This document shows positions 11,264 through 57,762 of a stretch of 64,000 nt of DNA, piece by piece. Each line of letters begins with the position of its first letter. The stretch's first letter is position 1. The DNA comes from Eremomyces bilateralis CBS 781.70 (taxonomy: Eukaryota). The stretch lies in NCBI GenBank assembly GCA_010015585.1, contig ML975153.1. One strand, written 5' to 3'. Position numbers and translations under genes: made by a program. The notes under the pieces were generated by a model. It saw only the letters and a list, made by a program, of their open reading frames with translations, made no database searches and was not told the DNA's origin.

Positions 11264-11578
11264 GTTGCGAGGAGGAAAGTCAAGATCCCCATTGTATAGT
11301 TCTCATCCGAAACTAGAAGGACAGTCTAGGAATCATGAATGGAGTTCGTAAGATAGCATCGCAATAGAACCCTGATCGCCAGTTCGACCACCTGTTCCCA
11401 GTTGTGTATGGCCAACATATTCCCCTAAACGCCGAGCTATGCCGAATTCTATGCAAAAGTTAAGTCCAGGTAGACTGTAGTTCGGCAAACCGGATCTGCC
11501 GAGACGCAGCAATCTATTGTTCAAAATGAACCATGCCCCAGGGGCAAAAATATGACAGACCGAACCCAGCCTACATCT

Positions 11579-37587: not shown

Positions 37588-39035
37588 TCACTCGGTATCG
37601 GCACCCCCATTCGCAAGTCGTGAGGACCGTCGGCCCCGCTCCATATCTTTCGGGCTTGTGGCTCGCGAGCTGTCTTCATCACCGCTTTCGGGACTTGACT
37701 GCCGAGTATCGTTAAGCGTCCGACGACTCCGCGCCATCTATATGAACGCCGGTTAGTGGTTGACGCTTCTAAATCAATCGACGGGACTTACCCATGACCT
37801 CACTCCGCCGATCAACCCCAGGCTATAGCCCGCTGCGAAATCCGAAGAATTGGTCGACGGGGTTCCGGTCGGAGACTTCGGAATGTCCAGGTGGCTCAAA
37901 TGAGCCACAGCAGAGGCCGATGGAACGTTCGACAGCCTCGGAGAAAGGTTTGGCTCGTCCCTACTCGACCGAGCCGGGCTTGCTGGCCTGCTGCCGTTGG
38001 CTTGCCACATCTGTCGCAACTCCTTCCCCAGTTCCTGTCCGGTGGTGGTCCAGTTGGTTCGGATGTTGTCGCGCAACTCGGCCACGGTACGCTTGATATC
38101 GAGCTCATTTTTCTTCAACCAGGAGACGTTGAGCTCCTGTCGGGACGTTCCTCGCTTGAGTTGCCGGGTAATGTATTGATCATAGTCGCGAATAATCCTG
38201 TAACAGTTTTAATGAGAGGCCGGTCAACCAGCACGGGAAGACATACTTTGAAATGATGCCAGTCGTAGATACGCCCTCGGTTCTTTGAGTGACCAGGAAT
38301 TTCCCTTGTTCCTTAATCGGGGAGTAGATGTCGTCCCCTTCGTCCGCACCATAGGGAATATCGTCGTGGGCAACGTAGTCAATTTGATATTTCTCGATGA
38401 ACTCGGGAGTATCGGTGATGATCCATGGGCAGTCTTCCACGACCTCGTCCACCCACTTGCAGTGCCGGACACTCTCCGCCCTCTCCTTCCCTGACAGGAC
38501 GGTGAGACCTTTTCTTCGATGGGTTTCCTTGTCACCCGTGACACCGACAATGAGGTATACGTCCGGGAAAGCCTGCTTCGCCTGTTGCAATTGTCTCATA
38601 TGCCTAGTCCCAGTTAGCAGTTACCTCCCAGCCGGTGGAAAGCATTGCATACCCCAAGTGGAAGAGGTCGAACACGCCATCCGCGTACACGCGGACCGGA
38701 CGCCCTTCAGGCGGAGGATTGGTATGATATCCTTTCGGATCGACCAGTCCCGCGCGTGGGGGCTCCTCCATCCTCATTTTCCCCCTTTCACCCCCTTCAC
38801 CATGTTCGAGGGCTTCTTCGACATCGAGGTCGCTGTCCGTGGAATCCGCTCGTCCGTTGGCTGGTCGCGAGCGTTTCGCCGCCGGCTCGGGCGACTTACT
38901 TCCCGAAGAGTCCTCGTTTTGAGACGTGGATTCTCGGGCATCGTCGCCGGACGCATCGTTCAATGGTGACCGGGTAGTGTCGAGGGTAAGATCGGTCGAG
39001 GAGCCGTTTGGCGTACGCTTTCGCTTCGGAGGCAT
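37588..39035 (-). CDS. PCT1: Choline-phosphate cytidylyltransferase (3 introns)
   Basis: RPVRVYADGVFDLFHLG|HMRQL, HCKWVDEV, DYVAHDDIPY, TQRTEGVSTT; last exon ends at TGA 37588-37590. Confidence 0.95.
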
Positions 39036-39493
39036 GGTGAGGTGTGCGAAGGCTGTGGTGGGGTTGGTTCCAGAGCCCGTGAGGAACTATATCAGTAGGG
39101 AGATGGACGGTGAGGTTTACTCGACCGAAGTCCTGAGACGGGGTGCGAATCTCGAGATGAAATGCGGATTGCGGAAGGCTTGCTCAGAGGAACGATGGAA
39201 ATTTTATGGGGACGCAACAGCATATATAGATGAATTGCTAGGTGGTGTTACCTGGCGGGTGTTAGGGAGAGGGGAACACACAGGTGAGAAGCCGAAATGA
39301 TGGACAGTATTAAAGTACTTCGGTATGATCAATGATCGCATCGCCGACGTATTAATTCCCCTTGTCCAAAGTTCTGTAGCTTTCGTTGAATCTTTGAATT
39401 CAGGGCAGGCCAGCTCTCGTCATGGATGCCTCGTCGCCTCAGGCATGAAATACTACTGTCCATAATATCTGATTGGCGATTAATTACAGACTG

Positions 39494-39510
39494 AATCTGA
39501 GGACCTGTGA
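39494..39510 (+). repeat. Left terminal inverted repeat AATCTGAGGACCTGTGA
   Basis: Exact reverse complement of 55353-55369; begins after a 5-nt spacer inside the left ATTACA. Confidence 0.93.
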
Positions 39511-40028
39511 AATTGCCGTCGAAAAGGCCGGTTTATGACGCTGTTTTTGGCAGCATTTCCACATGACCTGGTCATGAAAATCAACCCTTCTCCTCCCCAA
39601 ACACCCCGTAATGCCAAGTGCACGTGACTTTGTCTATCAGTTTCGTGAGTTTCATGAAAGTCACTGAATTTAGAAACAGGAGATGCGAACCCGCAAGCGG
39701 GTTTCACTGAAAGAGAGCCTGGAGGAACGAAGCTAGAGTTTGCAGTTTTCGAATCTCCCCCCCAAAAATAAGAGCTCGAATTATATTCAATAGAAGCATC
39801 ACAAAAGGATTGAAATTCCGTTAGTGTTCTGGGGTTGGCTTTATGGTAGTACGGAAGGCTAGTTTAGTGATTGGTTGCTCCGCTGAACTCAAATTCGATC
39901 AAGTATCAATATCGTTTAGTCTACAAGGTCTGCAAATACTTATTCCATTCAAGCTAAACTAAAGAAGAAGAGGAGAGGAGGAAATCTCTCTCTATTATAC
40001 GGGAGATGAACCTTTCCTCTACTTCGTG

Positions 40029-40058
40029 AACACGTCTATCAACACGTCTATTAACACC
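40029..40058. repeat. 12-bp tandem repeat AACACGTCTAT(C/T), about 2.5 copies
   Basis: Read directly; lies upstream of the helicase relic. Confidence 0.8.
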
Positions 40059-40399
40059 TAACTGCCTCCTGATAATCCTCTCACCACATCTAGCCTCATC
40101 CACACATATATCGGGCACAGATCACAGGCCTCGGACCATAACAAGTGATACGATATTCGTCGGGTAGGGAAAAGAGTCAGTACTAATAGCAAAAGTAAAG
40201 TAATGAGTAGATCCTTTACAATGGCTGGAGGGCTTTTTTGTCAGTAAGGTATAGTTTAGTTTGAATATCTCTGCGACCTACGTCTTGAAGCGCTCGAGTT
40301 CATTCGCCATATTCTACGAGATCTTGTCACGATTGAAGGACAAGCCGTACCAGAAGAGACTGAATATATTCATCAATTGTCTTTCCACTACAGCCTGTA

Positions 40400-41668
40400 G
40401 GTCACAGCGACCTCGGAAGCGGCGGCAGCCAATATCAATGGGGTCACCATCCATTTCACTTACAGGTTCTTCAAAGATATAACTCGGTCGGCGGGTCGGT
40501 ATGCGGATCTAGAGAGCTTTACGCCGAACAATTTAACCAGCCTCCGCATCGATAGACGAAGCCAGGCCGAGTGGCAGGAAAAGGTCCGACTTATCATCGA
40601 TAAGATTAATATACTGGGTACTTAGACGCAGTACGTAGTGAACGAACAGCTGTGCTGACTGCAACGGAGTATAGACGACTTTGGCAGGATCCCGATTATT
40701 GTCTTCTGCGGGGATTTCTACCAATTTCGTCCGGAACAGAGGCGGTCGATCCTTGTCCCTAGCCATGCTACTGTATAGACCGACGATACATCGTTCCGAG
40801 CAGAGTAAAGGCACTAGCACGATAAGGCGCACGCGCTGTAGAATAAGTTTAACACGGTCGTGATGCTCGACGAATAGGTCCCGTACGGCTAGAGACCCAC
40901 GACTCCAGCAACTCCTCAGGCGGATCCGGCACAGCGTTCAAGATCAGTCCGATATGGATTTCCTGAACCAGACGTGCTACTAGGAAGGTCGACGTATCCT
41001 ATAGGAGTCTAGCATCACGGTTATTACGCTGCTGAATCGGAACCGCTGGAATCTGAACGTCGAAGCTATGCTATCCTTCCAACGCCAAAGGCAAGGCGTG
41101 CTTCGGATTTTCATGTCCAAGCATAAGTAGAAAGATGGCCAGCCTATAGAGGAAGAGGCCCTAATACTGTTAAGTTAGGGAGACGACAGCGCCGTCCTCG
41201 TCCCCGCCATCTTCATGTTCGTCCCGGGGATGTCCATAGCTTTAAATTAAAACACCCACTAAGGCCTGAAGCTGGTCAATGGCGCCCGCTACACGGCGTT
41301 AGACGTCGTCCTCGACCAGACACCCCCCGGGCATCGCGTTAACGCCGATACCATACTCCACCTCGGGCCTCCGGCCGGGATCGTGCTGGCGTCCGAGACG
41401 ACGAGAGACTGCGACTTCGTCAGCATGCCAGCCGGCACCGTCCTCCTGGCGCCCGTCAGCATCAAAATCGACTGCTAAAGACAGCGGCCGTGGCAGATGC
41501 ACGACGTTAGCTAGCGAGGATTACCGTTCGCAGCGGCGTTCGCCTGCACGGATTACAAGGTGCAAGGAAAGACGTTGGGCCGAGTGGTGCTGGAACTTCG
41601 CGGTGCGAGGACGATAAAAATCGATAGGATTATGCTCCTGTCTCGAGCGCGGGAAAGGGACATTATTG
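40400..41668 (+). pseudogene. RIP-mutated PIF1-type helicase fragment (Helitron-like transposon relic)
   Basis: Degenerate motifs VTATSEAAAANINGVTIH, LIIDKINILG (from LIIDEISMLG), FGRIPIIVFCGDFYQFRP, LNRNRW, LVNGA, AFACTDYKVQGKT. At least 9 TAG/TAA stops in the helicase frame plus frameshifts. Confidence 0.9.
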
Positions 41669-41740
41669 TTATGGTCCCAAGCCTGTGGCCTGGGCACTTG
41701 AGTATGGCTGAAGCCACAGGGACGTGGCTAAGTGGATAGC

Positions 41741-41779
41741 ACAAAGGAGATAGGCACAAAGGAGATAGGAACAAAGGAG
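41741..41779. repeat. 15-bp tandem repeat ACAAAGGAGATAGG(C/A), about 2.6 copies
   Basis: Read directly; lies between the helicase relic and the 3' end of the transporter gene. Confidence 0.85.
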
Positions 41780-41936
41780 GTATCTTCTATATCTCGCGCG
41801 CAGAGGCGTTGGGAGGTTTCTTCCTTCTCTCTCTTCAGTTTAGATTAATGGAACTTGGTAATCGTAGACCTTGCGCATCCAAACCGTGTCAGCCTTGTCG
41901 ATCGTTGTTACAGATGGTGACGCTTCTTTCTCACAG

Positions 41937-44825
41937 CTATATAGTCCGGCTCGTTTCACCCTCTCCATGCTGTAGATTGTTGATGTCCAGTCGCTCGTTG
42001 CGGGTGACCCGACCAAATATGGCTGCAAGCTCCTTTCGTGACTCGAATAGCGGCCACTAGTAGTCAAGTATTAGTCGCCGTCACTGTTAGATATAAGGGG
42101 GATACTCACAAAAAGGATGAGAATCAAACTAATGAACACAAATGTTGCGGCTGCGACACACTGTAGCACGAAGAGGCCTCTTGGGTAGACGACGGCGGTG
42201 CCAGCAAGTGGGGCAGGAATAAGGACGACTGAGTAATTTGTAAGCCATAGCTAGGATAAATGTGGAATTGATACTCACGGATGACGAGAAGAAAGAGTCC
42301 GGTGATGATGCGGAAATGAGTCTGCGATGCCTCGAGCTTGGCCACTTCTTTGGCATACTGCGCCTCGGTCGCCGTGGTTCGGCCTCCACCTTCCACCGCG
42401 TAAAGAGCAGGCTCATATGTCAGATCTTTTGACCCAGCGAAGTGACTCTGGCTATGTTGAGGGACCTTTTCGGTTGACCCGGTCGATTCGGTCGACACGG
42501 TCGCTGATTCTGGAACGGCCACGCCACGACCGATGGCTCGGGTGAGCTCAAAATCGAAAGAAGCGGGTTTTATGAGAGACAGCAGTATAGATATGATAGC
42601 GCCACTCCCCAAGGCCGACAGCGAACCCGAGAGGATGACCTTGCTGTCGGTCAGGGTCGTGATAGATACTATCCCCTTGGTGGTAACCGCGGTGACCAGC
42701 CAAGCCACGAAGCCCATGACCAAACCGCCAAGGACCCCCAGGACGGCGCCGGCCTTGTTCAGTCGGGTCCAGCACATCAACAAGCCGATTGGGAAAACGG
42801 CGCCGGAGGTGCAGACGGCCATGAGGTAGAAGAGGAAGTTGAGGTCGAGACCGATGTACGCAAATGCAGTGTCGATGCCAGCGAGGAAGATGGCCCAGCA
42901 GATAACCACTTGGAGAAATCAGTCATGAACGAAGGCGGCCGGGGGAGGACTCACCGGCATGGTTGATTCTCATCATCTGGACATTTGTTGCGGACTTGTT
43001 CACATACTCACGATAGCTTTGAAGATCAGCAAGGGTTTTCCGAGTGTGGGGTGATGTGCTTACATGTCGTAAGAGAAAATGGTCGACACCGCAACCAGTT
43101 GAGCGGACAGCGCGGAAGTCGTTGCCTTAAAATTTTGGTCAGCAAGTGCAACTCAAAGGACATTTCAGACGAACCATGAACGCAATTATGGTATACATGA
43201 CTGGCCCTGCTTTGCCGAGTATTGTCACGCTTGCAAACGGCCCAGCGAGTCCTCTATAAGATGAAAAGTCAGAATGATGCGGTGGAATGGACATAAGAGG
43301 GCACTTACGCGCCAATCTGTGCGAGAGAAAGTCCATTGGGGTAGGTCGGGAAGGCGGGATTCGTTACCAGCGCCCTTGCGGCCAAACCCATCGATGATCC
43401 GATACCAAAGGCGACTATACCGCGGCGTGAGTACGTTGTCATGACCTAGTCTCGAGGGACGTACCTGAGAAGAAGAAACAGCCTGCGAAGATGAAGGCCT
43501 TGCTGGTCCCGGCCGGTCGAGCCGCGATGCTTCGCTGCCAATATGACCTGGTGTCTGCAGTTAGCCTCTTTCCGAGGACTCGAATTGCGGGCCTTACTGG
43601 TCACAAAAGGACAATCCGAAAAAAGACGTGGCCGCCGTGACAGCGTAATCTGTTCCTTTGTCAGTTCAGTCGATGTGGACGGGTGGGCTGGGCCACATAC
43701 ACATGCCGCCTTCACTCCGGAAGGAGAGATAGGACTCATGCCCGTTACCTAGTGCTGGGGCTTCCTATTGCGCGTCAGCCGTCGAATACACCCCTCTAGA
43801 GCATTCTGGAAAGTATTCACCTTGGAAGCTTGGAGGAGAAGGTCGTACAGCTTGCCAGGTGACCCAATGACGTCGCCTCGTGTGTAGGTTGCCAAAACGA
43901 GAACGAGGAGGCACGAAAAGAGTATGCAGCAGTGGAGATAGTCCGCTCTGTGAGTCCTGGTCAGTATCCGCTGGCATTCACGGAGAATAGACGACATACA
44001 CGAAGGTGGCTCGAAGACCACCAGTCAGGACTGTTTAGGTGTCAGTGATGGTTAGACTGGGGTGGTTCGTTGCGGACCGTAGACAACGACTACCAGCGGA
44101 AGCAGCCAGATGGCAGCGTATTCGCTGATACCCGTCAGACCAGCGATGACTCCAGACCCGCCGATGAGAATCTCGCTGCCCACCACAAAGTTGGCAACGA
44201 GGGCGGCGAACATATACGCCAGATGACCAAGAGTGCCGAAGCGGACTTTCGCCACTTGAAGATATCTGCCAACAAGGATGAGTTTGGAACTTGGTATCTC
44301 AGAACTGGCCAGGGGCTTACGTTGAGGCGCCGCTGGCGTTTACCTTGATCTTTGAGGAGATAAATGCGAAAGCTGCGATCTCTGCCTCGTTGTCAGTCGT
44401 CACCTCTTGAGTCCACTTCAACGGCTCCAAACTATACCGACGAAGCCTCCCATGCCAAACCACCAGGGCACCGAGATGCCATAGAGGTAGGTGAGCGTCC
44501 CCGTTTGTAGAAAGACCGCTGCCCACACCCAAGCAGACGTGATACCCACTGACATCCTGCTTGTGCGTCAGTTGCGAGCATCTCGGAAGAAGACAAGTTT
44601 TGACATACATTCCCGTCTTGACGGACCTGGAAGCTGAGGAGAACTCCTCCACCTTCCGGGGGTCAAAGCTGGTGTATCGTTTCTGTACCCAAGTGATACC
44701 GTTCATGAGTACCGCGAAGAACGCACCGCCGACCAAGACTGCATATGGTCAGATATCTCAACTGCGCACCGGGAGAGAGAAAGCTTACTGGTCGCGTATC
44801 CGGCGCTTTGAGGTAGCAGTGACAT
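41937..44825 (-). CDS. DUR3/UreA-like urea active transporter (sodium:solute symporter family; roughly 15-17 introns)
   Basis: MSLLPQSAGYA; EEFSSASRSVKTG; AKVRFGTLGHL; IGSPGKLYDLL; SAQLVAVSTIFSYD; C-terminal WPLFESR...; stop TAG at 41937-41939. Confidence 0.88.
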
Positions 44826-44975
44826 GGTGTTTGATCGTTTTCCACCACAGACTCATTGCAATTTTGATTCTTTGGCTCGTCTCGGAGCCCCATCCTGTAG
44901 ATACTCAAAAGTTATATAGATCAAGAAGAGCAATTGCGCGAGAGATTGTCAGCAAGTTGCAATTCTACACTAAGC

Positions 44976-45069
44976 TCGGCCATCCGAAACACTAATAGAG
45001 TTCGAGACGCAGGGACGAAGAGCCACGCGAGCGGAGCGAAAAGCTTAAGCACTTCTGCCGGCGATCCGA
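44976..45069. promoter_or_regulatory. Two CGG-N4-CCGA inverted-triplet sites in the transporter/TF divergent promoter
   Basis: TCGGccatCCGA at 44976-44987 and CGGcgatCCGA at 45059-45069. CGG triplet pairs are typical Zn2Cys6 binding sites. Confidence 0.55.
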
Positions 45070-45804
45070 GCGCCCCTGCGAAAGGAGTCACCGAGTCAGA
45101 CGCCTTCAATACCATCACCTCAACTTTTGAACTGGAACTGAACAGTGACCATCGATCCGTTCTACTTCAAGTTTGAACACCGAACTCTATAGGATACCAA
45201 TCTCATACAGACCATGCCACTTTGGAGGGTGCTTTTCTCTAGATAATTTTTCTTTATTGTCTTCCTTTTTCCAGGATATGTCTTCGTCTTAGGCTATCGC
45301 ATTGCTAAGGGTAAGACCACAGGCTGTCAGCTTCTTGAAATATAAAACAAGTTGCTGTTCTTGCACAATTTTGTGCAAATTTTGTGCTTAAAGTCAGCAT
45401 TCTTCTTGGGCTACTGTATCCCGTTGTGGTGCCTCCTGAGGGTCTACTTGTCGACTTTAGATTCCCATCGCTGTAGCATCATAATAACATGATTAAAACT
45501 TTTGAGAGCAGCAAGAGCCTTTTGATTGGGGTACTCATTGCAGAGCAACTCCTTTTTGAAGTTGTATATGGTACTAAGTTTGAGTAGGATGGCTCGGACC
45601 AATATGTGAGTCCTCCTGTTGTGGAGCCTATGCCCTCTAGCAAAAAGTAGGCCCGCATAGTCAAAATGACGAACCATTCGCCGATACGCACGCCATCATA
45701 AGATATGGTACCTGGGCGAGGAGTTGAGCTTCGGCCTGATATCTCTTGCCATCTTCTATACGTCGTGGATATGCCTTGTTGGGCTGTGTTACCCGTGTCT
45801 TACC

Positions 45805-48720
45805 ATGTCACAAAACGAGGAGCATGACGAGGTGGTGGACCTGTCCGAGATCCGGTGGAAGATGCTGGTTGCCTGCGATATCTGCAGGCGACGAAAGGCG
45901 CGTTATTGGTTGCTTCTCATATGTATGGTCCTGGCGCTGAATCTTTATTCCTTTATAGGTGCGGTGCGACGGTGAGAGACCGTGTTTGAGATGCAGCAAA
46001 GGTGGAAAGAAATGTAGCTTCTCGACGCGGTAAGTGGCGACGACACCCGCTGCGTATATATCGACTATGATCTGAATACCAGCGACAGAAGACGAGTCGT
46101 GATAAACCCCGAGGACATACGGTGAGCAACGGTTATCTTTACAGTAGTGACCCCCAGCACTGAGGACCGAGACAGGGCCGTGAAGCGGCCTCGAACAACC
46201 CCTTTGTCCCCGGATCACTTGTCCTCGAAGCGGTCGATCTCAAACGTCTCGTCGCCGAGACCTGTATCCTCGTCTGAGCCTTCAAGGGTTCCAACGGGGA
46301 AGGACAGATTAAAGCCAGATGTAAGCAAGTCCTTCTCCTAATCTCGTTCAGGATCGCTGAAAAACGGAACCAGCGGCGAGAGGCCGCTCCCTCCACGCCA
46401 GGCAAAGAGCATCTTCTGCTCATCGACTCGGATGACCAGATCGTCTATTCTGGACCATCGACGGGAATGTCCTTGTTCGCTCGCCTCGGCTTGCTTCACA
46501 CTGTCGAAGTATCTGAGAGCGACAGGACTGTGACGTCTTTTGCGTCTCACTCTGTAGGCGCCTTGGGCATAACGGGAGCCACCACCTCTTCCAGCGACTA
46601 CTTAGATCTTTGCCTGCAACATTGCCCGCAGGAACTCATGTTCAAGTTGATAAACTATCATCTGGGCACTCGTCAGTCCCGTCTTATTTCGGTACTTGAC
46701 TGTCACTGAACAACCTTCTCTTACAGCGATCTTCTTTCCACTACTTCACGCTCCTTCGTTCTTATCTGTAAGGCCACGAATCCATCTAGGCAACAGAGCT
46801 GATCGCTTGTGCAGGAATTTGTCGCCGTAACCCAACGCCGCCTTCCATGTACTGCTCAATATGGTGCACTCCTGATGAGCATCTTTGCTGTGACGGCGCG
46901 TCTGGTCGAAGGTGCCAGAGCCCTCCTTCCAGCGTCGGAGCGCGACCAAGCTGGCGAGAGGTATTTTGAGCTTGCTCAAGACCTTATCAGAACCAGCAGA
47001 AATAAGCTCGACATCCGGCACATTCTCGCTCTTTACCGTTGGTGTGGTCACTGCGTTTCCCATTTCAACTTGGCTGACTCGATGCGTAGACCTTGCATTG
47101 TATGCCGAAGGTTGCACCAGTTCTGCGAGTCAGTTATTGCTCTAGACCGGTAAAGGTGTATTGTTGACAAAGTTCACAGGCTCCGTCTCTAGCTTCGTTG
47201 CAGAAGCAGTTGGTCTGGCCTTTACCACGGGGCTTCACCGTAGTACGAATGAGTTCAAGATGGACCCGGTGACGCTACAGGTGAGCCCTCCGCCCCCTCG
47301 CGAGGCAAGTAAGATGCTAAGCGGCAGGTCCGTACCCGCCTATTTTGGGCCTTATATACGCTAGATACCTCCCTAACCTATTCTCAAGGGCGGCCACCAC
47401 TCATCAGGTTGTCAGAGTGTAAGTCCGCCGATGTCTCGTGCCGCACCGTGGAGTAGCTGAGTAAAAATAGGCAGCGTCGACCTTCCTGTCATTGTCGACA
47501 ACGAATACATAAAAAAAACGGAGATTCTTCCCCAGCCCGAGGGAAATCCGCCACTGGCGATGGCCGCAGCTGTCAAGATGATCGAGATATACATCGCCCT
47601 CGAACAGGTGCGTTGTGATCCCATGCTATTGGATCTCATACTAAGCTGTGCTGTAGGTGCTGTCTGCAATCAACACCCCATCAAGAACACCTGCCGCGGC
47701 CTTTTCTCTGAACGACCCTCCGCTTGACCGCAGCGACCTCCTAAAACGGGCGCAGAAACGACTGGACGAGGTACGTATTTGGCCACGGGGCGAGGAGAAG
47801 ACTGAGGTTGAGCATTGTTAATGGACTGGTTTGCACAGATTGAACGAGATCTCCCGCCATATTTATCGCAAGTCCTTGTGACAGCCGATCCGGCCTCAAG
47901 CTTCTTCTACTCTTGCCGCGTCCGGACGGTCCTCCAATTTGTTCGGACTCTTATTGCCCGTCAAGCCCTCATTGACGAACTAGAGACGAGTCCGATGTCC
48001 TCCAAGAAAGAGACTAGCTTCGCCACATCGGAAGCCTGCGGCCTCTCGGTAGACACCGTGAAGACGTATTCACGCTTACGGCACTTGGGCCTTCTTCGCT
48101 TTTGCGGGTTCCACGCGATATCCCACGTCATTGCCGCTGCGCATACGCTGATCGCGTGTATGTTGAGGAGCTTCGATCTCGCCTTTGAGCATCGACCTGA
48201 CCTGCTGACCGCCATTGACATCCTGCTCGTCTTCTCATCTACATTTCCGAACGTCGAGACGGTCGTCCAGCTCCTTTTTCAGTTGTCTCACAGTTTGGAT
48301 CACAACTATGGTTCGAATAGCAAGAGCGAGGCCATTGCCGTCCGAGTCCTCGCTTCGAAAATGGCGCGGCCCGCTTCGAGAGTCGAGCAGCCTCTCTTGA
48401 AGCCAGCATTTTCCTGGCAGTCCTGGAATGGTAATTCTACTCAATGGGTTGATCCTGAACACCCGTCCAAGCACATTGTCGGGACTGGGACGTCTCACGC
48501 CTCCTCTAGCTACACTCAACTATCTGTCTCGGACACTGACTTTTCGCCTACTCCTCGGGAGGACACATCGGCCTTCAGCACGACTAATGACGCTTCTGCT
48601 TGGCTTTCTCTAATAGCTACGGGGCCAGTCGAACCCGAATGGACATATAATGATTCAGATCATGCGGTGTGGGGGGACAGCTTTTCATTTCTAAACGACG
48701 GATTGATTAGCAAATGGTAG
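45805..48720 (+). CDS. Zn(II)2Cys6 transcription factor with a fungal TF middle-homology region (about 12 introns)
   Basis: ACDICRRRK|VRCDGERPCLRCSKGGKKCSF; AFTTGLHR; RTRLFWALYTLD...QGRPP; long last exon ending at TAG 48720. Confidence 0.88.
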
Positions 48721-48947
48721 GAGCTTCTAATATATCATAACCAATTGCTTCATACTCGTTTTAGCCAATCCACTGTCGTTGTCTAAAAACTCGGAACTTC
48801 TTCGTTTCCCATGACCCATGAAAACTCATACTGCCCTTGCAACCCACTACCATGCTACAGCGCAGAATCTCTGACCGAGATACGTATGAACAGTGGGCAG
48901 ATGTAATAATGGAATTGAACACTCATCGTGCCTTACCGAGACGGTTT

Positions 48948-50783
48948 CTAGTCGATAAGCTCCCGAATATGCTGCTTCCAGGCCGGCCACGCTCCCCATC
49001 GCTCTTCAGCGTCAACTTCCTCTGGTCCTCCTTCGCCAATCAGGCTAAGCAACCTCTCAGCATATTCGAATCTGCACGGATGATCAGCTTGAGCACCACC
49101 AAAACCACGGCAGACTTACTCTCCCGGATGGCCGAGAATCAAGGTCGAATGCGAATCTGACTCCTCTTCTAGATGAGGTGTCAGCTCGAGTGGCGTACCC
49201 GACCAGTAGGCCGCTATTGCTCGAGCTTGCATCTCGGAAAACGGCCAGGGGATGGCTTCGGCGTGGAGCAGTAAGAATGCGAGTGTGGGATCCGGTAGGT
49301 AGAAGATCTGGTGTGCATCGAGATGATGAACGCCTTCTTTCGGGTCAGTGCCGGATGCGTACTTCATTGAGGGGACTCACGGTGCCCGCCTTCCAGAGTA
49401 GCCTGACCCACCAAGTTCTTTGGTGGTCGGCGATGCTCTTGAGGGACATACGGGTCCCTCAGCAAGGGTGCTTTATCGAATGGAGAGTCCGACGGGAGGC
49501 AGAACTCAAAGCGGAAAAGGAATCCGGTAGCAAATACAATCACCTATGGTTGTCAACTCTGCAGGTAGACTAAGTGCCGCGGGAAAGATCTCACGTCCAC
49601 GTCATCCAGAATCTCTTCCGAGACAGTGATGATCCTACCAGTACCGGAATCGAGAGAGGGTGGCTCGACGGTCCGTATTGGTGCAACATTCTTGATATAT
49701 TCGGTCCATCCTTTCTCGCGTTCGGTGTCATACCGAGGCTTGCTTCTGAGAGAACGGTACACTCGGCGTGGTGCCAGGGGCGACTCTTCGACACAAAGCA
49801 TGCCGAATTCTCGCACAAGATCCGCACCTGCATTGTTAGCGGAGACGACAAGGACGAGAAAGGTTGCTCTCACTCGAGGGTCCGGCGCCCATCACCATCA
49901 CGGTCTATCCATTTTTCAGCTTGCAGTCGCGGGAAAGATGCGGAGATGGACTTACCTTTCCAGCAAACGCTTTCGCCTGTCGGTACCATCTTGAGTGCAA
50001 AATTTCCCCTTTCCAGGCCCACAGGTTGTCAATCCATGGGATGAATGGCCTAGAATCCGATCCGTTCGCGACAACGATATTGTCAAACTCTTCTTCAAAG
50101 ATCTTTCCCACATCTGGCGACTTGCTGGTCGCAGATGGCGACCACTCTATGAGCCATCTTTTGCTTGAAGCACGATCAGGGGGTGTATGCCGTACCCGAG
50201 TGACCACCCGGTTGAGTTTGATGTGACTGGCGTAGGTGGCGGCGTGGTTTTGTTGATACCGATAGATAACGTCATACGTTGGAGACTCTGCTGTGCCTTG
50301 GGCATAAGGGTGCGAGCGATATGGCATGATATCCTTGACAAGCCAACAGTGAGCACGAATTTTGCAGAAAGCACTTATTGACACTCACTCGAGGCGTGTT
50401 GGCCGTGACGCCAGCATATATAGGGGTTGGAGCCGGCGCTGGCTTACCAGACCGTTCCAGGTCTGTCAGAGCAACGGCATGGCCAGCCTCGTCGAAAGAG
50501 ATTCGGCATGGTGGCGGCGTTGGGTCAAAGTTCCTGTATAAATCTCCGTCAGCGCAAGGGGTCCCAAGCAAATCATTCGAGTGCGACCCGACTCACCAGA
50601 GACCACCTACACTGTCGCGTGCCTCGTACGCCACGACATCGAAACCTTTACGCTTGAACTGCTCAATGGCTCCCAGACCTCTTCATTTCGACATCAGCTC
50701 TTGTTTTGTGAATTTCACCAAAGTTGCACTCACGCGGGGCCGCAACCTATGATGAGGACCGAAGGTCGCATTTTGACGGTCAT
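48948..50783 (-). CDS. Flavin-containing monooxygenase (class B, Fmo1/thiol-specific monooxygenase-like; about 8 introns)
   Basis: FAD motif IIGCGPA|GL, VGGLW, FMO fingerprint WKGEILHSRWY, NADPH motif VMGAGPSS, FATGF, FYLPDPTLAF, PWPFSEMQARAIA; stop TAG at 48948-48950. Confidence 0.9.
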
Positions 50784-50949
50784 CGCTGGTGGTCGTATCC
50801 CAAGTCGGGTTGCTCGCAAACATGGCACTGAAGATATAGCTGGAAGAGCCTCGAGGCATGCACATTATTATCCGATCCACTGCTCCAGGTAAAATCCCGT
50901 CCGTCTACTACCACAAGCTCCACAGTTCAGCTTGTCGTGATCGTGAGCT

Positions 50950-50997
50950 CGGCAGAGCCGAAGCACGCAACTGCCCGCCTGCCCTCGGATCACCGAG
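50950..50997. promoter_or_regulatory. CGG-N5-CCGA and CTCGG-N4-CCGAG sites in the FMO/rhodanese divergent promoter
   Basis: CGGcagagCCGA at 50950-50961 and CTCGGatcaCCGAG at 50984-50997. Confidence 0.55.
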
Positions 50998-51161
50998 ATG
51001 GCAACGAATTCTTGCGACTGGCAAGGCGCTTTGGCGGCTTGTCCTTTATTGACAATATTGTCATTGGTATTTATGAGATAGCAATTCTCAGAAGCGGCCA
51101 TTGATGGTTATTTTTCTTTTCTGTGTCTTGAGACGTGACAACTAATTATCGAGGCTAGTAA

Positions 51162-52333
51162 ATGACAACGAAGTTCAGCATGCCAGTACCACTCATTATC
51201 CCCCCAACGTCCTCTCTTATCGCTGAGCCCGATGCCATTGTCCTAGACGCGTCGTGGCTTTATGAGCCCGATCCACCAACACGGAACGCTTATGAAGAGT
51301 TTCAATCAGGTCCTCGTTTCCCAAACGCGCGATTTTGGGACCTGGACGCGGTGTCTGAGCCTCATCCCGATGGGTACGCCCTGATGCTCCCTTCACCAGA
51401 ACGATTCGCCGCGTTTGCAGGCAAGTACGGAGTCACGAAGGATTCGCATGTCATCGTGTACGACGGCGAAGGCCTCTTCGCCGCTCCCCGGACAGCATGG
51501 ACGTTCAAGGTCGGTTACCTGCGACCAAGAACATGAGAGCTCACTGACCTGTTGACTGGATGGAACAGGTTTATGGGCACGAGAAGGTGTCAGTGATTAA
51601 TGGTGGCCTACCGCGCGCGAAGAAGGAGGGTGTCAAGCTCGAGACCGGGCCGCCAAAACCCGTCGAAGTACGTCAGCCTGCACCACTTTGAGGCTCGGCT
51701 AAAGGATCGATGTGCACAGGAGACCAAATATCCCGTCCCAACCGTGGACCACAATGCTGTTGTCCGTAAGTGTTGCGTATCATATGTATGGACCGGACTG
51801 ACCACCATGTAGAGTTCGACGAGGTGTTAAGGCTCACCCACCGAGCGTCACCCTCAGCCGACAGCACTTTGCTGATAGATGCGAGGCCTGTGTCATCCTA
51901 CCAGGACGGCCACATACCCACGTCTCTCCTTCTGGATTTTCCCTCCTCCTTGCTTCAGGACCCAGCCAATTTCACGTATCTCCGAAGCCCCGGAGACCTG
52001 AAGGAGTACATAGCCGAACAGCTTGGTCAAGACAAGTTGGATCAGATCCTCTCTCGCGAAGTGACAGTCGTCAACAGTGAGTTCGAGCATTTCAAAGAAT
52101 TGTATCATTGAGCACGAGTGCTGACAAGGGTGACTAGCTTGCGGAGGTGGCCTCTCGGCGGCGATAAACTGGTTGTCTCTCATGTCCCTTGGAGTAGATT
52201 CTCGACTCTATGACGAAGTGAGCAACTTTTGTCCAATTTCGTTGCGATATAAACTGATCGATTCCTGTAGGCTTGGGGTGGCTATTCCGCCCGGCAGGGT
52301 ACTCCTACAGTATCAGGCCCAAGTCCTTTGTAG
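51162..52333 (+). CDS. Tandem-domain rhodanese / 3-mercaptopyruvate sulfurtransferase-like protein (5 introns)
   Basis: VLDASW, RFPNARFWDLD, MLPSPERF, APRTAWTFK|VYGHEKVSVINGGLP, LIDARP, GHIP, catalytic loop TCGGGLSAA, LYDE|AWGGY. Start at 51162 or 51180. Confidence 0.9.
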
Positions 52334-52350
52334 AGCTCACAGCTCCTGCA

Positions 52351-52822
52351 TCAAGCGTCATCCACAGTCTGCGCCTCCCAGATTCCAGTCACAATAGGCT
52401 TCCCATCCCTCTCTTCCACCTTTACGATCGTCGTCGCGCTCTGCTTAAGTTCCTTCCCATCTTCCTTCCCCTTGGTCACGTAAGCCGTCCATTGCCCAAC
52501 AACACCTGTAGAGCCGGAGTCGTTTCTAGTCACAATGTTGAGGTCTTTGATCTTGACAATAGCTGCGGTGAAGGCGGAGCGAAATTGGGTGGTAATAAGT
52601 GTGACAAATTCGGAACTAGTCAGGGGAGTGCCGTTGATCTAGATAGACAGATGACCTGAGCATAGGCGCAGGTGACGCAACGGAAAGGAAGCAACGTACA
52701 TTAATGTTGGCATCTGCGGCAAGCTCAGTGGCTAGCACTGACGCTGCAAGGATATCGTCGGCCTGGAAGAGGGTGCGGGTGAAGAAGGAGTCAACAAAGT
52801 CGGCGACTGCGGGTCGAGACAT
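52351..52822 (-). CDS. Small (about 136 aa) hypothetical protein, possibly SnoaL/NTF2-like fold (1 intron)
   Basis: MSRPAVADFVDSFFTRTLFQADD...ANIN|INGTPL...GVVGQWTAYVT...IVKVEERDGKPIVTGIWEAQ. N-terminal helices followed by beta-strands; the fold is an inference. Confidence 0.7.
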
Positions 52823-52983
52823 CTCTCAAGGTAGTGGACGGTGGCTATCGCTGTTGCAAGCAATGACAAAGATTGATGTTGTTTAACCCGTAACGTGTGT
52901 ACGTAGGGCGATAAAGCCATTTAAGCCGATTGCTATTCTTGCGTGATTCTGTGAAATTAGCCCGATGCAATGGTGGCTACTGG

Positions 52984-54100
52984 TCAAGTTCGGATGGCCG
53001 AAGTCGTACGTAATGTCAAAGACCGATGGTACAACAAGGCCGAATGACAGCTCGAGGGATGGTAGGTCCATAGTACCTGGAGCCGACCGTGGGCGAGGAC
53101 CTTCTCTACCCTAGCTATCGGAGGCTGATCGCCGTCCTCCTCGCCTTCGCATGTGACGACAATATAGTCTCCAACACGGACCTCTCTCCCATCACCTGGA
53201 GTTCGGGTTAGTAGGAGAATCGACCGAAGGGCTTCGATAATCACACTTACAATGAACCCGGCCAGTAGCTGCTTTTCGACGGCCACTGTTCGCGCTTACC
53301 TGTAAGGTTGCTTTTAGAAGCCGAGACGATGTCATTGTCATCGTCGCTGGAAACGATCGGTAGCTTTCCTTTCCCCAAAGATCCGGGAACGTCAGCGACA
53401 GAGAGCGGTTCAGGCGCAGACCGAGTTATGCTGGCTAGCCCGTCGTCATCATCACGACGTGGCATGTACGCAGCGCAGAGGCTGTCACTTAACTCTGTCG
53501 TGGGGCTGCGTGCGCAGAAGTCATCGCCGGATTGCTCTGCCCCGTCTTCTATGTCTGGCACGATCAGTCCCGGCCAAGGACCGCCAGTAGCGCCCAGCCC
53601 ACTACCATCTCTAATATTTTCGTGTCTAGGAGCGCGATCGCCATCTAGGCTTCCGTTTCCTTTGTGTTCCTGATGCGCTGGGCTTGCTGCCCGTCGAATG
53701 CGATCGGGACGGTCTGCAGCAATCGCCCCTCGAGACATCCTAAAGAGTTCTTGGGGGGTGGGGGAGTCATCTCCATCGCTGCTGCTGGTCTCGACGCCTT
53801 CAGTATGACCGCTGGCCCCTCGAGCCGCTTGATCACTGTTCTGCGCAGAAGCGGGAGCTGCCGCCAATAAACCTTCTTCTGTTAGCACTACCAACCGATT
53901 ACTCTTAATGGACCGATGAACTCACCATGGCCCCGGATTGGGCTACCTGTAGCCGGCCGGCGCGCTGAGCAATCGTCTTCGCCACTGTCGCCTTCGGTAA
54001 GGCCTATAATTTCCACGCTACCCAGGCGGACTCAACGGCTCTCCGTAGGGTGCCGACCTTGCTTATAAGCTGTTGAGATCTGCGGAAGATCGGAAGCCAT
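52984..54100 (-). pseudogene. Degenerate gene with a low-complexity N-region and a BAH-like C-terminal domain
   Basis: ATG at 54100 with an in-frame TGA at 54032-54034; spliceable exons lead to GDGREVRVGDYIVV...PPIARVEKVL..GRLQVLWTYHP. Confidence 0.45.
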
Positions 54101-55352
54101 AGGAGCGTCGTTCCGCAGAGGTTGGTAAGGGACGAAAATAGTCATGGGAGAGATTGCCATAGATAGGGCAAAGTGCAGAGATGGGCTACGGTAGAGGTTT
54201 GTAGGAGGAGCGGGGGAATTGAATTAAGGATTTCATGGGAGCAGGAATGGCGGCCCTTAAGCATCCGGCACCGGTGCGGTGCAAGATCCTCCTCACCCGC
54301 CCTCTCATCGCCATGGATCAACCGATCCGCTGCTTGCATGCGCAACCCCAGCATCTACCACTGATTTTGCCTCGCCGCTCTTGTTGTCAGTCCGCAATTT
54401 GCAAGAGTGTGTGTATTCTGCATCCAAGGCATGAATATGCACTCCTGTCTTTCTTAGTGTGCCGTCAGGGATATTAGGGGTTATCCTAAAATAACGGGAG
54501 GTGAAGAGGCGGTGGGTTAACGTTAACAAGTTCTGCTTAAGCAGCTTTCATTTCCTTTCACTTTTCTATCCACGATCAGTAAGGGTTCAGATGTGATATG
54601 CGACGACACTATCGCTTCCATCCACACAGTCAAAGTTTGAAGAAAAAGTGATCCGCGGTTCCAAAAACCTATCGTCGCTGGATTTGAGATCGTATGTACC
54701 ACCCTTAACCAGAAGATAAAGGGGAGGCTGCGTCTGTGGGAGCGCAAGGCCGTGAGGAGAAGGATTGGGGTGGAGGCAATCTCAATGGCCGTGCTAGGAC
54801 GCTAACCTCGGGCAGTCAGAGAGAGGAACGCAAAGCCTAAAATTGACGCAGGCCAAGGGCTTCGGTCAGTGGTTCGTCACGCGGAGAAGTTCAGCTGGTC
54901 ATGTCCAGTGAGGATCATGTTAGAATACGACAGCGGAATCCTCCATCCAGCTGAGGGGAAATGCAAAATGACAGGGACGATCGAGACAAGGGGTAAAACT
55001 GCTCACCATCGGCATGAAAGGGCCTTTAAGAGGGGAGAACAGTCAGGTCGCATGAATCGAATGAAGGGGGTAGGCGGGGTGGCCGCTGCGAGGAACTATC
55101 CGGTGGATCGTCAACGCTCCTCACGCGGGCAGACATAGGTCACAGGGGCGAAAGTGGGCAGAATGGGCCGACAGAAATGAAGGGGGGAGACAAGGAAGGC
55201 GGACGGGAAATGAATTGGTGAATGGGAAAAGATGGAGGAGAGCGGGTTGGCGAGAGGGGGGGATAGAGGTATTTATGTTTGAACGTTTTGGGAGGGTTGA
55301 AAACGGAAAAGTGCGCTAACCCCGAACCGGCACGCTAATCCAAAAGAGGCAG

Positions 55353-55369
55353 TCACAGGTCCTCAGATT
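55353..55369 (-). repeat. Right terminal inverted repeat TCACAGGTCCTCAGATT
   Basis: Exact reverse complement of 39494-39510; overlaps the right ATTACA direct repeat. Confidence 0.93.
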
Positions 55370-55979
55370 ACATTATTAATAACCACCAATAGTTACAGTA
55401 TGTTTGTACGGAATAAACGAGACTGGAATCTGGATCAGACCATGGCGACATCACCAGACATCCAGACTATTTATCCAATCAGTCCTGGAAGAGTTGTACA
55501 TGTATATATTAGGATCCTGGAGCATAACCTTCTATCGATGGTGACAAAGACCGTGCTCAACTACCGTATAAACCTTTCCATACAAACCCTTAACACTCCC
55601 CCATCAATGCCCTTCGTTTATGAACACAGGAAGGGATGACAGGATCCCACATCTTTTTCTTGAGAGGGGCCAATGGAATAGCTGAAACCGAAAACACACT
55701 AACACACTAACACACTCACAACAGACATTCCCATATGACGGACATGTACGGAGGCGGCATACGGAAAGAACTTTCTTCGATAGGTATAATCTCTCGAAAC
55801 CACGCCCGCTCAACCCTCAACAGAACCCATGGTCGGCCCCGCATTCCCAGGCACACATCGCCGCCGCATATTCAGATTCGACCTGTGCATTGCAACCAAC
55901 CCTTGGCACCCAATCCGTTTCCAAATGTCGCGTGATTCGGGTATGTGCAGGATGCTAGTAAATGTCCAGTGACTGACGC

Positions 55980-57762
55980 TTAAGATGATGCCTCCTTCTT
56001 CGTCTCCGTGCTGGATGGCGCGGCGCCAGTCTCCGTCGTCGATGACGGCGCAGATTGGTCTTTCTCGGCTGCCGGAGCGCCAGTGGGAGCAGGGGTGTCT
56101 TCTCTCTGTGCTCGGGTCGCGTCCGACTCCTCCGGCAACTCGGTGATCCTCTCAGTCCGATGGATCTGTTCTTCAAGGTCCTTGTCTTCGTCGATGTGGT
56201 CGAACATTTCCGAATCGCCCGCTTCGTTGGACAGCTCGGTCCCATCGCCTAGAAGAATGATGCGGCCCCCGAGCGCTCGAGCCAGCTGGCCGAGACCTTG
56301 CGAGCGATGGTTTTCCATGTCCATGTCGTAGTCGTCTTGCGCATCCTCGCTCCGGTGATGCATGCCGGGCCCTCGGAGTTCAGCTGTAGGACTCAAGTAT
56401 TAGTCGCCATCCGTAATGGAACTTCGCGCGGTGGAAAACGGGAGGGACTTGCCATATTCGGGAGGTGCGCAAGGCCCGTCTCCGTTGGCCACTCGCTCGG
56501 CAATTTCATTATACCACTCCTCCTTGCTTCGCCCGTTCAGAAGGCCAACGATGACTACCGTCATGTTGTCACAGCCCACGCCGCCAGTGTCGCAGTTGGC
56601 AGCAAGGCAATTGTCCATCAGGTTTTCACAGATCACATGGAGCTCCTGCTTGGCCGCAATGCCTCGGCGGACAAATTCAATGACCGCCTGTGAGCTCTGA
56701 CAGTCCCAGATACCTAAAGTCATCGATTAGCTTCCGCGACACATCGGAGAGCAAAAGGCACTTACCATCACAAGCCACGACTAGAAACTCGTCATCCGCC
56801 GAAATGTCATGAACTGTAACATCGGGGAAGGCAGTGACGATTTGCTGCTCAGGTGGTAAATCGGCGCTTTTCTTAAACTCGAAGTCGCCAATAGCCCGCG
56901 AGAGAGCCAGATTCCCATTGACTCGCCCAAAATCAACGAATCCGCCGGCTGCGACAATCCTCGCTTTTTCGCCTGTCAAAATGTCAGCCTTGTTCTGTTA
57001 ACTTTAGGGGTGAAAAATGCCTACCTTCGTTCTGCGGCTTATGATCAAACGATAAGGGCTTTGCCCGCCCTTTTATGCCTAGAACTGACCGTGAATCCCC
57101 AGCATTGCCCTAACAGGTTAGAGGATGGCCTGATGCGAAGTGGTGCAGTACATACGACGTAGATCTTATCACTGGATATGATACCAACAGAGGAGGTGCA
57201 GCCGGAAACTTCCTCTTCATATTTCGGGTCTGAGTTGTGTTAGCTTGCATTGCCAGTGGAACCATTGGATTCCCATTACCACTCAATATGGCCCGGTCGG
57301 TTGCAAGGAAACCATCCTTCAAGGCTTGCTCGATGTCCCCATTACGAAAAGAATTCTGCTTCGCAATGATCCTGTGCAGATTATCCCCGGTGTATATGGC
57401 AACCTTATCGCCGCCGTGCCCGTCGTATACACCAAAGTAACTTAAGCGCTGTTTACTCGGCGATAGCTTCTTGTCCTTGGTATCGGCTTTCAGATCCAGC
57501 ACGCACGCATGCGCATCTTCCATGCTTATACGCCATCCTTGCATGGACGAAAGTCCATATATGACTCGGTCGTCCTGTCCACTGTCCGATTTCTATACAC
57601 CATGGTCAGAAAATTTTCCATCGTATGGAGAATTGTGAGCGGCCAAGGTAGACAGCACGGTGCTTGCATCGTATTGGATGCTGCACATCGTGCGTGCCCA
57701 CGGCCGCTGGGTCGCAGTGGACTTACTTTCTCCACCACTGGCTCGGATAGTGTCTGTCCCAT
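55980..57762 (-). CDS. PTC2: Type 2C protein phosphatase Ptc2/Ptc3
   Basis: MGQTLSEPVVEK, MQGWRISMEDAH, VYDGHGG, GNAGDSR, GRVNGNLALSRAIGD, ACDG|IWDC, GCDNMT. Confidence 0.95.

Follow-up and report, generated by a model that had tools for sequence, protein, structure and literature searches.

Organization of the PCT1-PTC2 interval

The 64-kb stretch of Eremomyces bilateralis CBS 781.70 DNA analyzed in this work (64,000 nt of contig ML975153.1, referred to below as the window) carries, between a PCT1-like and a PTC2-like host gene, a delimited segment (39484-55371), which very probably is a derivative of a Starship of the Hephaestus family (family 2), placed in a TTAC(N7)A site, devoid of the captain gene (DUF3435) and retaining both of its ends. 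With one copy of the direct repeat counted, the element is 15,884 nt long. Three proteins of the window (symporter, regulator, and PP2C phosphatase) are 100% identical to NCBI proteins of E. bilateralis CBS 781.70 encoded on one contig; this fungus is a Dothideomycete of uncertain placement. The following features were distinguished:

37777..39086, minus strand: left flank, PCT1-like cytidylyltransferase gene of the host (PF01467, E 1.7e-19)
39483..39488, plus strand: left direct repeat ATTACA, with the TTAC core at 39484-39487 (read directly)
39484..39590, plus strand: conserved left terminal region of about 100 nt (alignment with eight metagenome left ends; blastn)
39493..39519, plus strand: left terminal inverted repeat (TIR) GAATCTGAGGACCTGTGAAATTGCCGT, with the exact arm at 39494-39510
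39591..39892, plus strand: rest of the 5' leader, including about 39616-39803, which is repeated in the source genome
39893..41891, plus strand: decayed transposon relic, occupying the expected place of the captain
39920-40144 (minus strand) and 41666-41891 (plus strand): inverted repeat units of the relic, about 225 nt each (repeat search and alignment)
about 40527-41650, plus strand: stop-riddled remnant of a PIF1-like helicase, between the 225-nt units (PF05970, E 0.012)
41940..44825, minus strand: cargo gene 1, SSS-family solute:Na+ symporter (urea-transporter-like), 689 aa, with many introns (PF00474; extent from tblastn)
45805..48717, plus strand: cargo gene 2, Zn(2)Cys(6) fungal transcription factor, 755 aa (PF00172 and PF04082; 100% identical to P152DRAFT_512783)
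49908..50592, minus strand: cargo gene 3, flavin-containing monooxygenase (FMO), seen exons only (PF00743, E 2.9e-4; FMO structures, E 4e-5)
51162..52111, plus strand: cargo gene 4, two-domain rhodanese, thiosulfate/3-mercaptopyruvate sulfurtransferase-like (PF00581; E 6e-18 to rhodanese/sulfurtransferase structures)
52984..53921, minus strand: gene 5, acidic and Ser-rich protein with a weak BAH-like C-terminus (open reading frames; E 0.2, weak)
55048..55372, plus strand: right terminal region, holding the right inverted repeat (55353-55369) and ATTACA (55367-55372); repeated in the source genome
55983..57544, minus strand: right flank, PTC2-like PP2C phosphatase gene of the host (domain and protein matches)

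The element appears to hold a four-gene cluster (transporter, Zn(2)Cys(6) regulator, flavin monooxygenase, and rhodanese) together with at least one further gene, and, as an earlier reading of the same DNA made from its letters (the sequence-only reading) had pointed out, all accessory genes of the region lie between the two ends. A decayed helicase-type transposon relic stands in the captain's place, and the element would probably be unable to move by itself.

Structure of the element ends

The left end of the element reads gattaATTACAgactgAATCTGAGGACCTGTGAaattg and the right end cagTCACAGGTCCTCAGATTACAttattaat. ATTACA is present at both ends, and the repeat search recovered an exact inverted repeat (39494-39510 and 55353-55369; 17 nt, 100% complementary, arms 15,842 nt apart), both of which had been claimed by the sequence-only reading. 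The asymmetry that it described was also borne out: at the right end the inverted-repeat arm and ATTACA overlap by 3 nt, while on the left the arm lies 5 nt inside ATTACA, the inverted repeat being separated from TTAC by the 5-nt spacer of the Hephaestus family. The TTAC-N7-A pattern, likewise noted there for both ends, is readable at each of them. Reconstruction of the empty site gives TTAC-ATTATTA-A, compatible with TTAC(N7)A, although an A in this position is expected in about 1 in 4 cases by chance and is weak evidence when taken alone. Deletion of the element in silico leaves about 1.0 kb between the top of the PCT1-like open reading frame (ORF; 39086) and the 3' end of the PP2C gene (55983), which agrees with the anticipated ordinary PCT1-PTC2 spacer of about 1 kb.

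Within the window, the 17-mer (up to 3 mismatches) is confined to the two ends. In shuffled controls it had a mean of 0.18 matches, and two matches were reached in 1/100 shuffles, so for the inverted repeat taken alone a chance origin is merely mildly unlikely; what raises the end repeats above chance is their match to the published ends of the Hephaestus family. No similarity outside the inverted repeat was found when the left and right terminal 350 nt were aligned, and blastn of both end regions revealed no second copy elsewhere in the window. It should be stressed that the description of the ends as 17-bp TIRs holds for the exact 17-mer but understates the conserved ends, since similarity to other family ends extends over about 95 nt at the left end and about 60 nt at the right.

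Similarity to the Hephaestus family

The 40-nt circular junction of Hephaestus, composed of the right end, TTAC, and the left end, has been printed (bioRxiv 10.64898/2026.09.21.753150). The Hephaestus right-end 19-mer has a single match in the window (up to 3 mismatches), located at 55353-55371, with 16/19 identical positions and 0.01 matches expected, and the best window match of the left 22-mer (15/22) is at 39484-39505. In Table S7 of the starfish study (PMC11162782), repeat strings with the core GGACCTGTGA / TCACAGGTCC are given for elements of Aspergillus calidoustus, A. fischeri, A. lentulus, other Aspergillus, Penicillium chrysogenum, Talaromyces, and Paecilomyces variotii; all six of the core-sharing published elements that were looked up belong to family 2, named Hephaestus in Table 1 of the same paper. 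By hand count, the left repeat of the window is identical to the "TIR up" of the A. calidoustus element aspcal2_s00748 in 23/27 positions, and the right repeat to its "TIR down" in 19/27.

The spacing is shared as well. The pattern TTAC-N13-GGACCTGTG (up to 1 mismatch) has two matches in the window against 0.04 expected, i.e., 39484-39509 and, with one mismatch and on the opposite strand, the right end, whereas CACAGGTCC-N5-TTAC has its sole window match at 55354-55371 (0.11 expected). The TTAC-N13-GGACC register at the left end equals that of Hephaestus. In the Hephaestus family, TTAC is reported to form the core of the direct repeats universally (PMC11162782), with TTAC(N7)A as the target (PMC10104507). 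Hence the Hephaestus-type end structure assigned by the sequence-only reading stands with respect to the sequence and spacing; its wording "target duplication" does not, because Urquhart et al. 2023 (PMC10104507) treat the TTAC repeats as homology between terminus and target and not as a target-site duplication. The more general proposal, i.e., that the element is small, of Starship type, and delimited by TTAC ends like those of Hephaestus with asymmetric inverted repeats, is supported by the published family-2 ends.

Compared with Hephaestus of Paecilomyces variotii, the type element of family 2 (Urquhart et al. 2022/2023), the element has the same TTAC repeats and TTAC(N7)A target, 16/19 positions of the right end (TCACAGGTCC-N5-TTAC), and the left end (TTAC-N5-GAAT...GGACCTGTGA) in the same register; in both, the repeat abuts TTAC on the right and is offset from it on the left, and both carry cargo. 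In contrast, the captain HhpA, located about 445 nt inside the left end of Hephaestus, and the metal-resistance cargo of that element have no counterparts here, and the repeats of Hephaestus are about 77 kb apart according to the starfish table, as opposed to 15.9 kb. The present element resides in a Dothideomycete and bears other cargo. Similarly, the starfish family-2 elements of Aspergillus, Penicillium, and Talaromyces (e.g., aspcal2_s00748) have tttaca-type direct repeats resembling those described here, but they come from Eurotiomycetes and were all located through the DUF3435 captain, a search that would not seed the element of E. bilateralis. Its size is close to that of the smallest element given in PMC11162782 (15,020 nt).

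In summary of the family traits, TTAC-core direct repeats, a TTAC(N7)A target, the core and spacing of the TIRs, cargo, and a size in the known range were all found, and a DUF3435 captain as the first 5' gene was not. The element is thus a member of the Hephaestus family by its ends, while by gene content it lacks the feature defining the family, the captain.

Absence of the captain and the transposon relic

Pfam scans of 26 + 133 stop-to-stop ORFs of at least 55 aa from 39300-55700 revealed no DUF3435 domain, nor was one found in six-frame read-through translations (stops as X) of 39483-42001 and 52900-55376. In tblastn searches with the captain ORFs of the metagenome locus L002 (described below), the best window match (E 0.087) fell at 24.3 kb, outside the element, and none below E 3.7 was found in 39.4-42 kb. 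The rest of the window, which holds ordinary housekeeping genes, also yielded no DUF3435. The claim that the element is captain-less was therefore upheld by ORF scans, read-through scans of both ends, and tblastn.

In four family-2 elements (A. calidoustus, A. fischeri, aspper1, and P. variotii), the distance between the GAAT of the left repeat and the start of the captain, as calculated from coordinates, is about 442-450 nt. The equivalent position here is about 39935-39943, which falls in the transposon relic. In the probable source sample (runs X1 and X2, which are probably the window's own source and consequently not independent), unique contigs end at 39616 and restart at 41835, with many diverged contigs between, showing mostly transition differences. 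Unique contigs of the left leader break at 39616 and return at 39803, with many extra contigs stacked in between, and loose contig ends are present at 41667 and 41891. As summed contig depth is not equal to copy number, the relic block is described merely as repeated. By far most of the extra contigs of the source sample gather at 41804-41891; this pile-up, together with the loose ends, suggests a very abundant short repeat family in the Eremomyces genome.

Comparison with a related fungus

For the comparison of the locus, contigs of a related fungus (organism B, run X4) were used. On one of its contigs (record 22, 24,010 nt), pieces of PCT1 (matching 37990-38785) and PTC2 (56204-57397) occur together with no insert. 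The distance between the positions matching 38785 and 56204 is 1,926 nt there and 17,418 nt in the window, or 1,534 nt once the element is subtracted. The alignment of the PCT1-PTC2 interval proposed in the sequence-only reading thus yielded an interval free of the insert, while the single ATTACA expected in it could not be read, the DNA being too diverged.

The cargo was found at another locus of organism B. Record 23 (65,398 nt, depth similar to that of record 22) aligns to 41896-53019 at about 92-93% identity (765 mismatches and 113 gaps over 11,124 nt), whereas the six flank pieces of organism B (1,464 nt, 287 mismatches) show about 80% identity. The 11-kb cargo block, its introns and spacers included, is therefore far more alike than the flank exons. 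The location of the cargo at another locus and its identity above that of the flanks form the pattern that would be expected of a shared mobile element or of horizontal transfer. The shared block runs from 5 nt past the end of the relic to 53019; record 23 accordingly contains neither the relic nor gene 5 nor the right 2.3 kb. It is also worth mentioning that several short organism-B contigs match 53051-53208, within gene 5, as if this piece were repeated in organism B. The regions 39.5-41.9 kb and 53.2-55.4 kb were uncovered in run X4 and are not counted as absent from this fungus.

Related left ends in metagenomes

Scanning of public metagenome contigs for GAATNTGAGGACCTGTGAAAT indicated 10 loci, two of them duplicating others, which leaves 8 distinct ones. 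TTAC precedes GAAT by exactly 5 nt in 6/10 loci. All loci share a left terminal sequence of about 95 nt, to which the window is identical at up to 39/50 and then at about 24/47 columns, and blastn of the left end against the best metagenome loci gave E-values of 1e-8 to 2.6e-10. Moreover, a contig of an air metagenome (run X3) matches 39493-39541, and the match is preceded by ...TTTTACAGCTA and followed by the same conserved leader; the pieces are short (49 nt at the left end), and the run serves here as an example of the family left end, not as an indication of habitat.

On the right, the last 60 nt of the element are 75% identical (E 9e-4) to the right end present in locus L003. In this 1,293-nt contig, at about 271-335 of the stored strand, the family right end caattcacaggtccaccgTTTAC is followed by 2 nt (TA) and then by the left end GAATCTGAGGACCTGTGAAAT..., an arrangement that looks like a circular junction, a tandem, or an end-to-end configuration, with a spacer 3 nt under the usual TTAC-N5-GAAT.

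Seven distinct loci in which the left end is followed by 1.5 kb or more of sequence were scanned for captains in ORFs of at least 90 aa and in read-through translations. A full DUF3435 gene follows the same left end in L002, and L007 contains a truncated one (profile positions 3-158 of 418), while in the next 1.6-4.5 kb of the remaining five (L001, L004, L005 (identical to L010), L006, and L008) no DUF3435 was found. In these captain-less loci the leader is followed by an F-box ORF, by a Zn(2)Cys(6) regulator, or by an ORF of unknown function and a Ras gene. L001, L006, and L008 come from one assembly and have similar coverage, and they differ in their upstream flanks and in the genes after the leader. 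In the stored metagenome loci, the right-end motif was encountered at the L003 junction, with a look-alike devoid of TTAC in L007, and nowhere else; as no right ends are present within the stored DNA, the captain-less loci may be lone left ends, and they are treated here as a lead, not a result.

Mobilization in trans

A frameshifted miniHephaestus has been shown to regain excision when HhpA is provided in trans (PMC10104507, section 6). For the Eremomyces genome, 15 Starship recombinase genes are given in the starfish tables, two of them of family 2 (erebil1_463208, on scaffold 1 at 155491-157951, and erebil1_490075), with 0 delineated elements (PMC11162782). From the experiment and these two genes, it is plausible that the element could be mobilized in trans by a family-2 captain; a captain encoded elsewhere could still excise and reinsert it through the intact ends. 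The published elementCount of 0 also accords with the prediction that captain-based screens would miss the element, with the reservation that such a screen additionally needs a second genome of the species.

In the source sample, the unique contigs leave a gap from 55077 to 55343, part of which (55087-55173) is covered by three further contigs of differing sequence. As the contigs overlap by 30 nt, we infer that the 30-mer ending at 55372 is common to other copies, which diverge right after ATTACA. Such related right ends elsewhere in the source genome are deduced from the contig breaks and not from direct observation.

The closest comparison is offered by miniHephaestus, an engineered element with a frameshifted captain, which has ends and cargo without a working captain, like the element described here. 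It was, however, built in the laboratory and has 3.8 kb and 1.9 kb of native flanking sequence, whereas here a 5' leader of about 400 nt is followed by foreign transposon DNA. Derelict or degraded Starships (PMC11162782; captain loss in PMC13439237) likewise combine captain loss, transposon invasion, and changes resembling repeat-induced point mutation (RIP), as seen here, but those presented in these papers are rearranged or unrecognizable, and the ends of the present element are intact and precisely defined.

Origin of the captain-less state

The captain was presumably lost through insertion of a transposon and a deletion, either at this site or before arrival. The first of these possibilities, to which we assign about an even chance, is that the element arrived as an autonomous Starship, lost its captain in place, and is now fixed and immobile. 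The relic starts where the captains of four family-2 elements start and differs from its other copies by many transitions, and both the loss of the captain gene and RIP are named as routes of Starship decay (PMC13439237, PMC11162782). On the other hand, no captain fragment is left, which would take a clean loss of about 2.6-2.9 kb, and nothing visible would block action in trans, given that the two ends are intact and agree with the family consensus.

More tentatively, the element might have been captain-less already on arrival, moved in trans by a family-2 captain, with the relic forming part of the moved unit. The perfection of the repeats (17/17 for the inverted and 6/6 for the direct ones), set against cargo about 7% off organism B and a relic more than 10% off its other copies, argues in this direction, although short repeats are a small mutational target. 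The activity of HhpA in trans (PMC10104507) and the two family-2 recombinase genes listed for the genome are consistent with such a history, as is the recurrence of the right terminal 300 nt or so in other source-genome contigs; no second copy of the element or other insertion site was seen in the search, which covered the window. The same left end lacks DUF3435 in 5/7 metagenome loci (truncated in one, full in one), which would fit as well, unless these loci, none with a right end in the stored DNA, are lone left ends.

Another type of transposon, i.e., a gene-capturing Helitron or a composite of two cut-and-paste elements of which the helicase relic would be the remnant, is very unlikely. 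Helitrons are known to capture genes; they have a Rep/helicase gene, 5' TC and 3' CTRR ends, and a subterminal hairpin, and they lack inverted repeats. Such gene capture is also mentioned in PMC13439237, and the left part of the element does contain the PIF1-like helicase remnant (E 0.012). This remnant, however, is bounded by its own inverted units of about 225 nt (39920-41891), well inside the outer ends, and the outer ends are Starship-like and not Helitron-like. Beyond the repeat, the left and right terminal regions share nothing, and there is no target duplication of fixed length, since the bases just outside the arms differ (GACTG vs. ACATT). As a candidate class, a Helitron was rejected because the outer ends are inverted repeats beside TTAC and a helicase remnant occurs only in the nested relic; a cut-and-paste DNA transposon was rejected in view of the same GACTG and ACATT and of ORF scans that revealed no transposase domain.

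The proposal that the repeats arose by chance in ordinary intergenic DNA of an old, vertically inherited accessory region can hardly be maintained. In its favor, a 17-nt inverted repeat is not very rare in 64 kb (the shuffle mean of 0.18 at up to 3 mismatches), but it is already contradicted by the published family-end patterns, which match these two sites only, by the similarity to independent sequences over about 95 nt at the left end and 60 nt at the right, and by a relative with no insert between PCT1 and PTC2 and with the cargo elsewhere.

The assignment of the segment to a captain-less Hephaestus-family element has to be weighed against several points. Taken by itself, the match of the left end to Hephaestus is weak, its 15/22 being equalled by a chance site at 11284, and, with the captain absent, family membership would have to be argued from the ends. 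The comparison of the locus comprises one relative, a distant one (flanks about 80% identical), whose intergenic DNA is too diverged to show a single ATTACA, so that the empty site is seen at kilobase resolution; a clean excision in organism B would look like an insertion here, and the polarity may be read in both ways. With regard to the cargo, the Eremomyces symporter falls in an unresolved polytomy, and therefore no donor can be named. The protein search requires exact 5-residue words and distant relatives may escape it, which means that the narrow distribution of the cargo may be partly an artefact of the search.

Implications for the detection of Starships

Starships are currently detected via the captain gene, and this element is recognizable from its two ends alone. 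It exemplifies that a captain-less copy can keep perfect ends and a working-looking gene cluster, whose closest relatives are in another fungal class. In a limited literature search, in which a prior description may have been missed, we found no account of a Starship that lacks the captain but has intact ends. Decay of Starships through captain loss and RIP has already been published, as has the term "derelict" (PMC11162782, PMC13439237), and "non-autonomous", where used in one Starship/captain paper, refers to the ToxTA transposon.

If such copies were moved in trans in the manner of the engineered Hephaestus, surveys would undercount Starship-borne DNA and the routes of gene transfer among fungi. 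A far-reaching and rather doubtful extension is that captain-less elements with intact Hephaestus-type ends constitute a natural and widespread "cargo-only" class of Starships, moved in trans by family-2 captains, ferrying clusters between fungal classes, and unseen by captain-anchored tools. Were this true, the present element would be its first delimited example, and the 5/7 captain-less metagenome left ends would be further members. The combination of TTAC-N13-GGACCTGTG and CACAGGTCC-N5-TTAC offers a simple genome screen for more such elements.

Distribution of the cargo genes

The PP2C protein of the flank had 854 matches in the protein search, the best non-self ones in Dothideomycetes (75-79%). 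For the cargo, the numbers were much smaller, i.e., 25 for the symporter and 20 for the regulator, with the best non-self matches in Exophiala/Capronia (Chaetothyriales; 63-82%) and the next relatives in Talaromyces, Geosmithia, Stylonectria, and the basidiomycete yeasts Kwoniella and Cryptococcus depauperatus. The symporter and regulator genes have adjacent locus tags in at least seven other genomes (e.g., PV11_06649/06650 and A1O3_04678/04679). This neighbor pair is patchy across phyla, occurring in Chaetothyriales, Eurotiales, Hypocreales, and the basidiomycete yeasts Kwoniella. The cargo may have been brought into the Eremomyces lineage by horizontal transfer on a Starship.

The symporter tree was constructed with 21/25 matches (P0004, P0005, P0020, and P0021 were excluded as variants of the same genes), and it placed the window protein within an unresolved ascomycete clade of 12 rows. 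In this tree, a symporter labelled "Aureobasidium melanogenum, partial" is at zero branch length from the Exophiala dermatitidis protein (P0002/P0003), and an "Elasticomyces elasticus" protein, which one source names Exophiala sideris, groups tightly with Exophiala sideris (P0007/P0022); it is possible that these records are mislabelled or contaminated.

Finally, an Rfam search of 36-59 kb detected no RNA family, and no tRNA was predicted by ARAGORN anywhere in the window. In the source sample, the summed contig depth at 54100-54763 is about twice the baseline, amid otherwise unique sequence.

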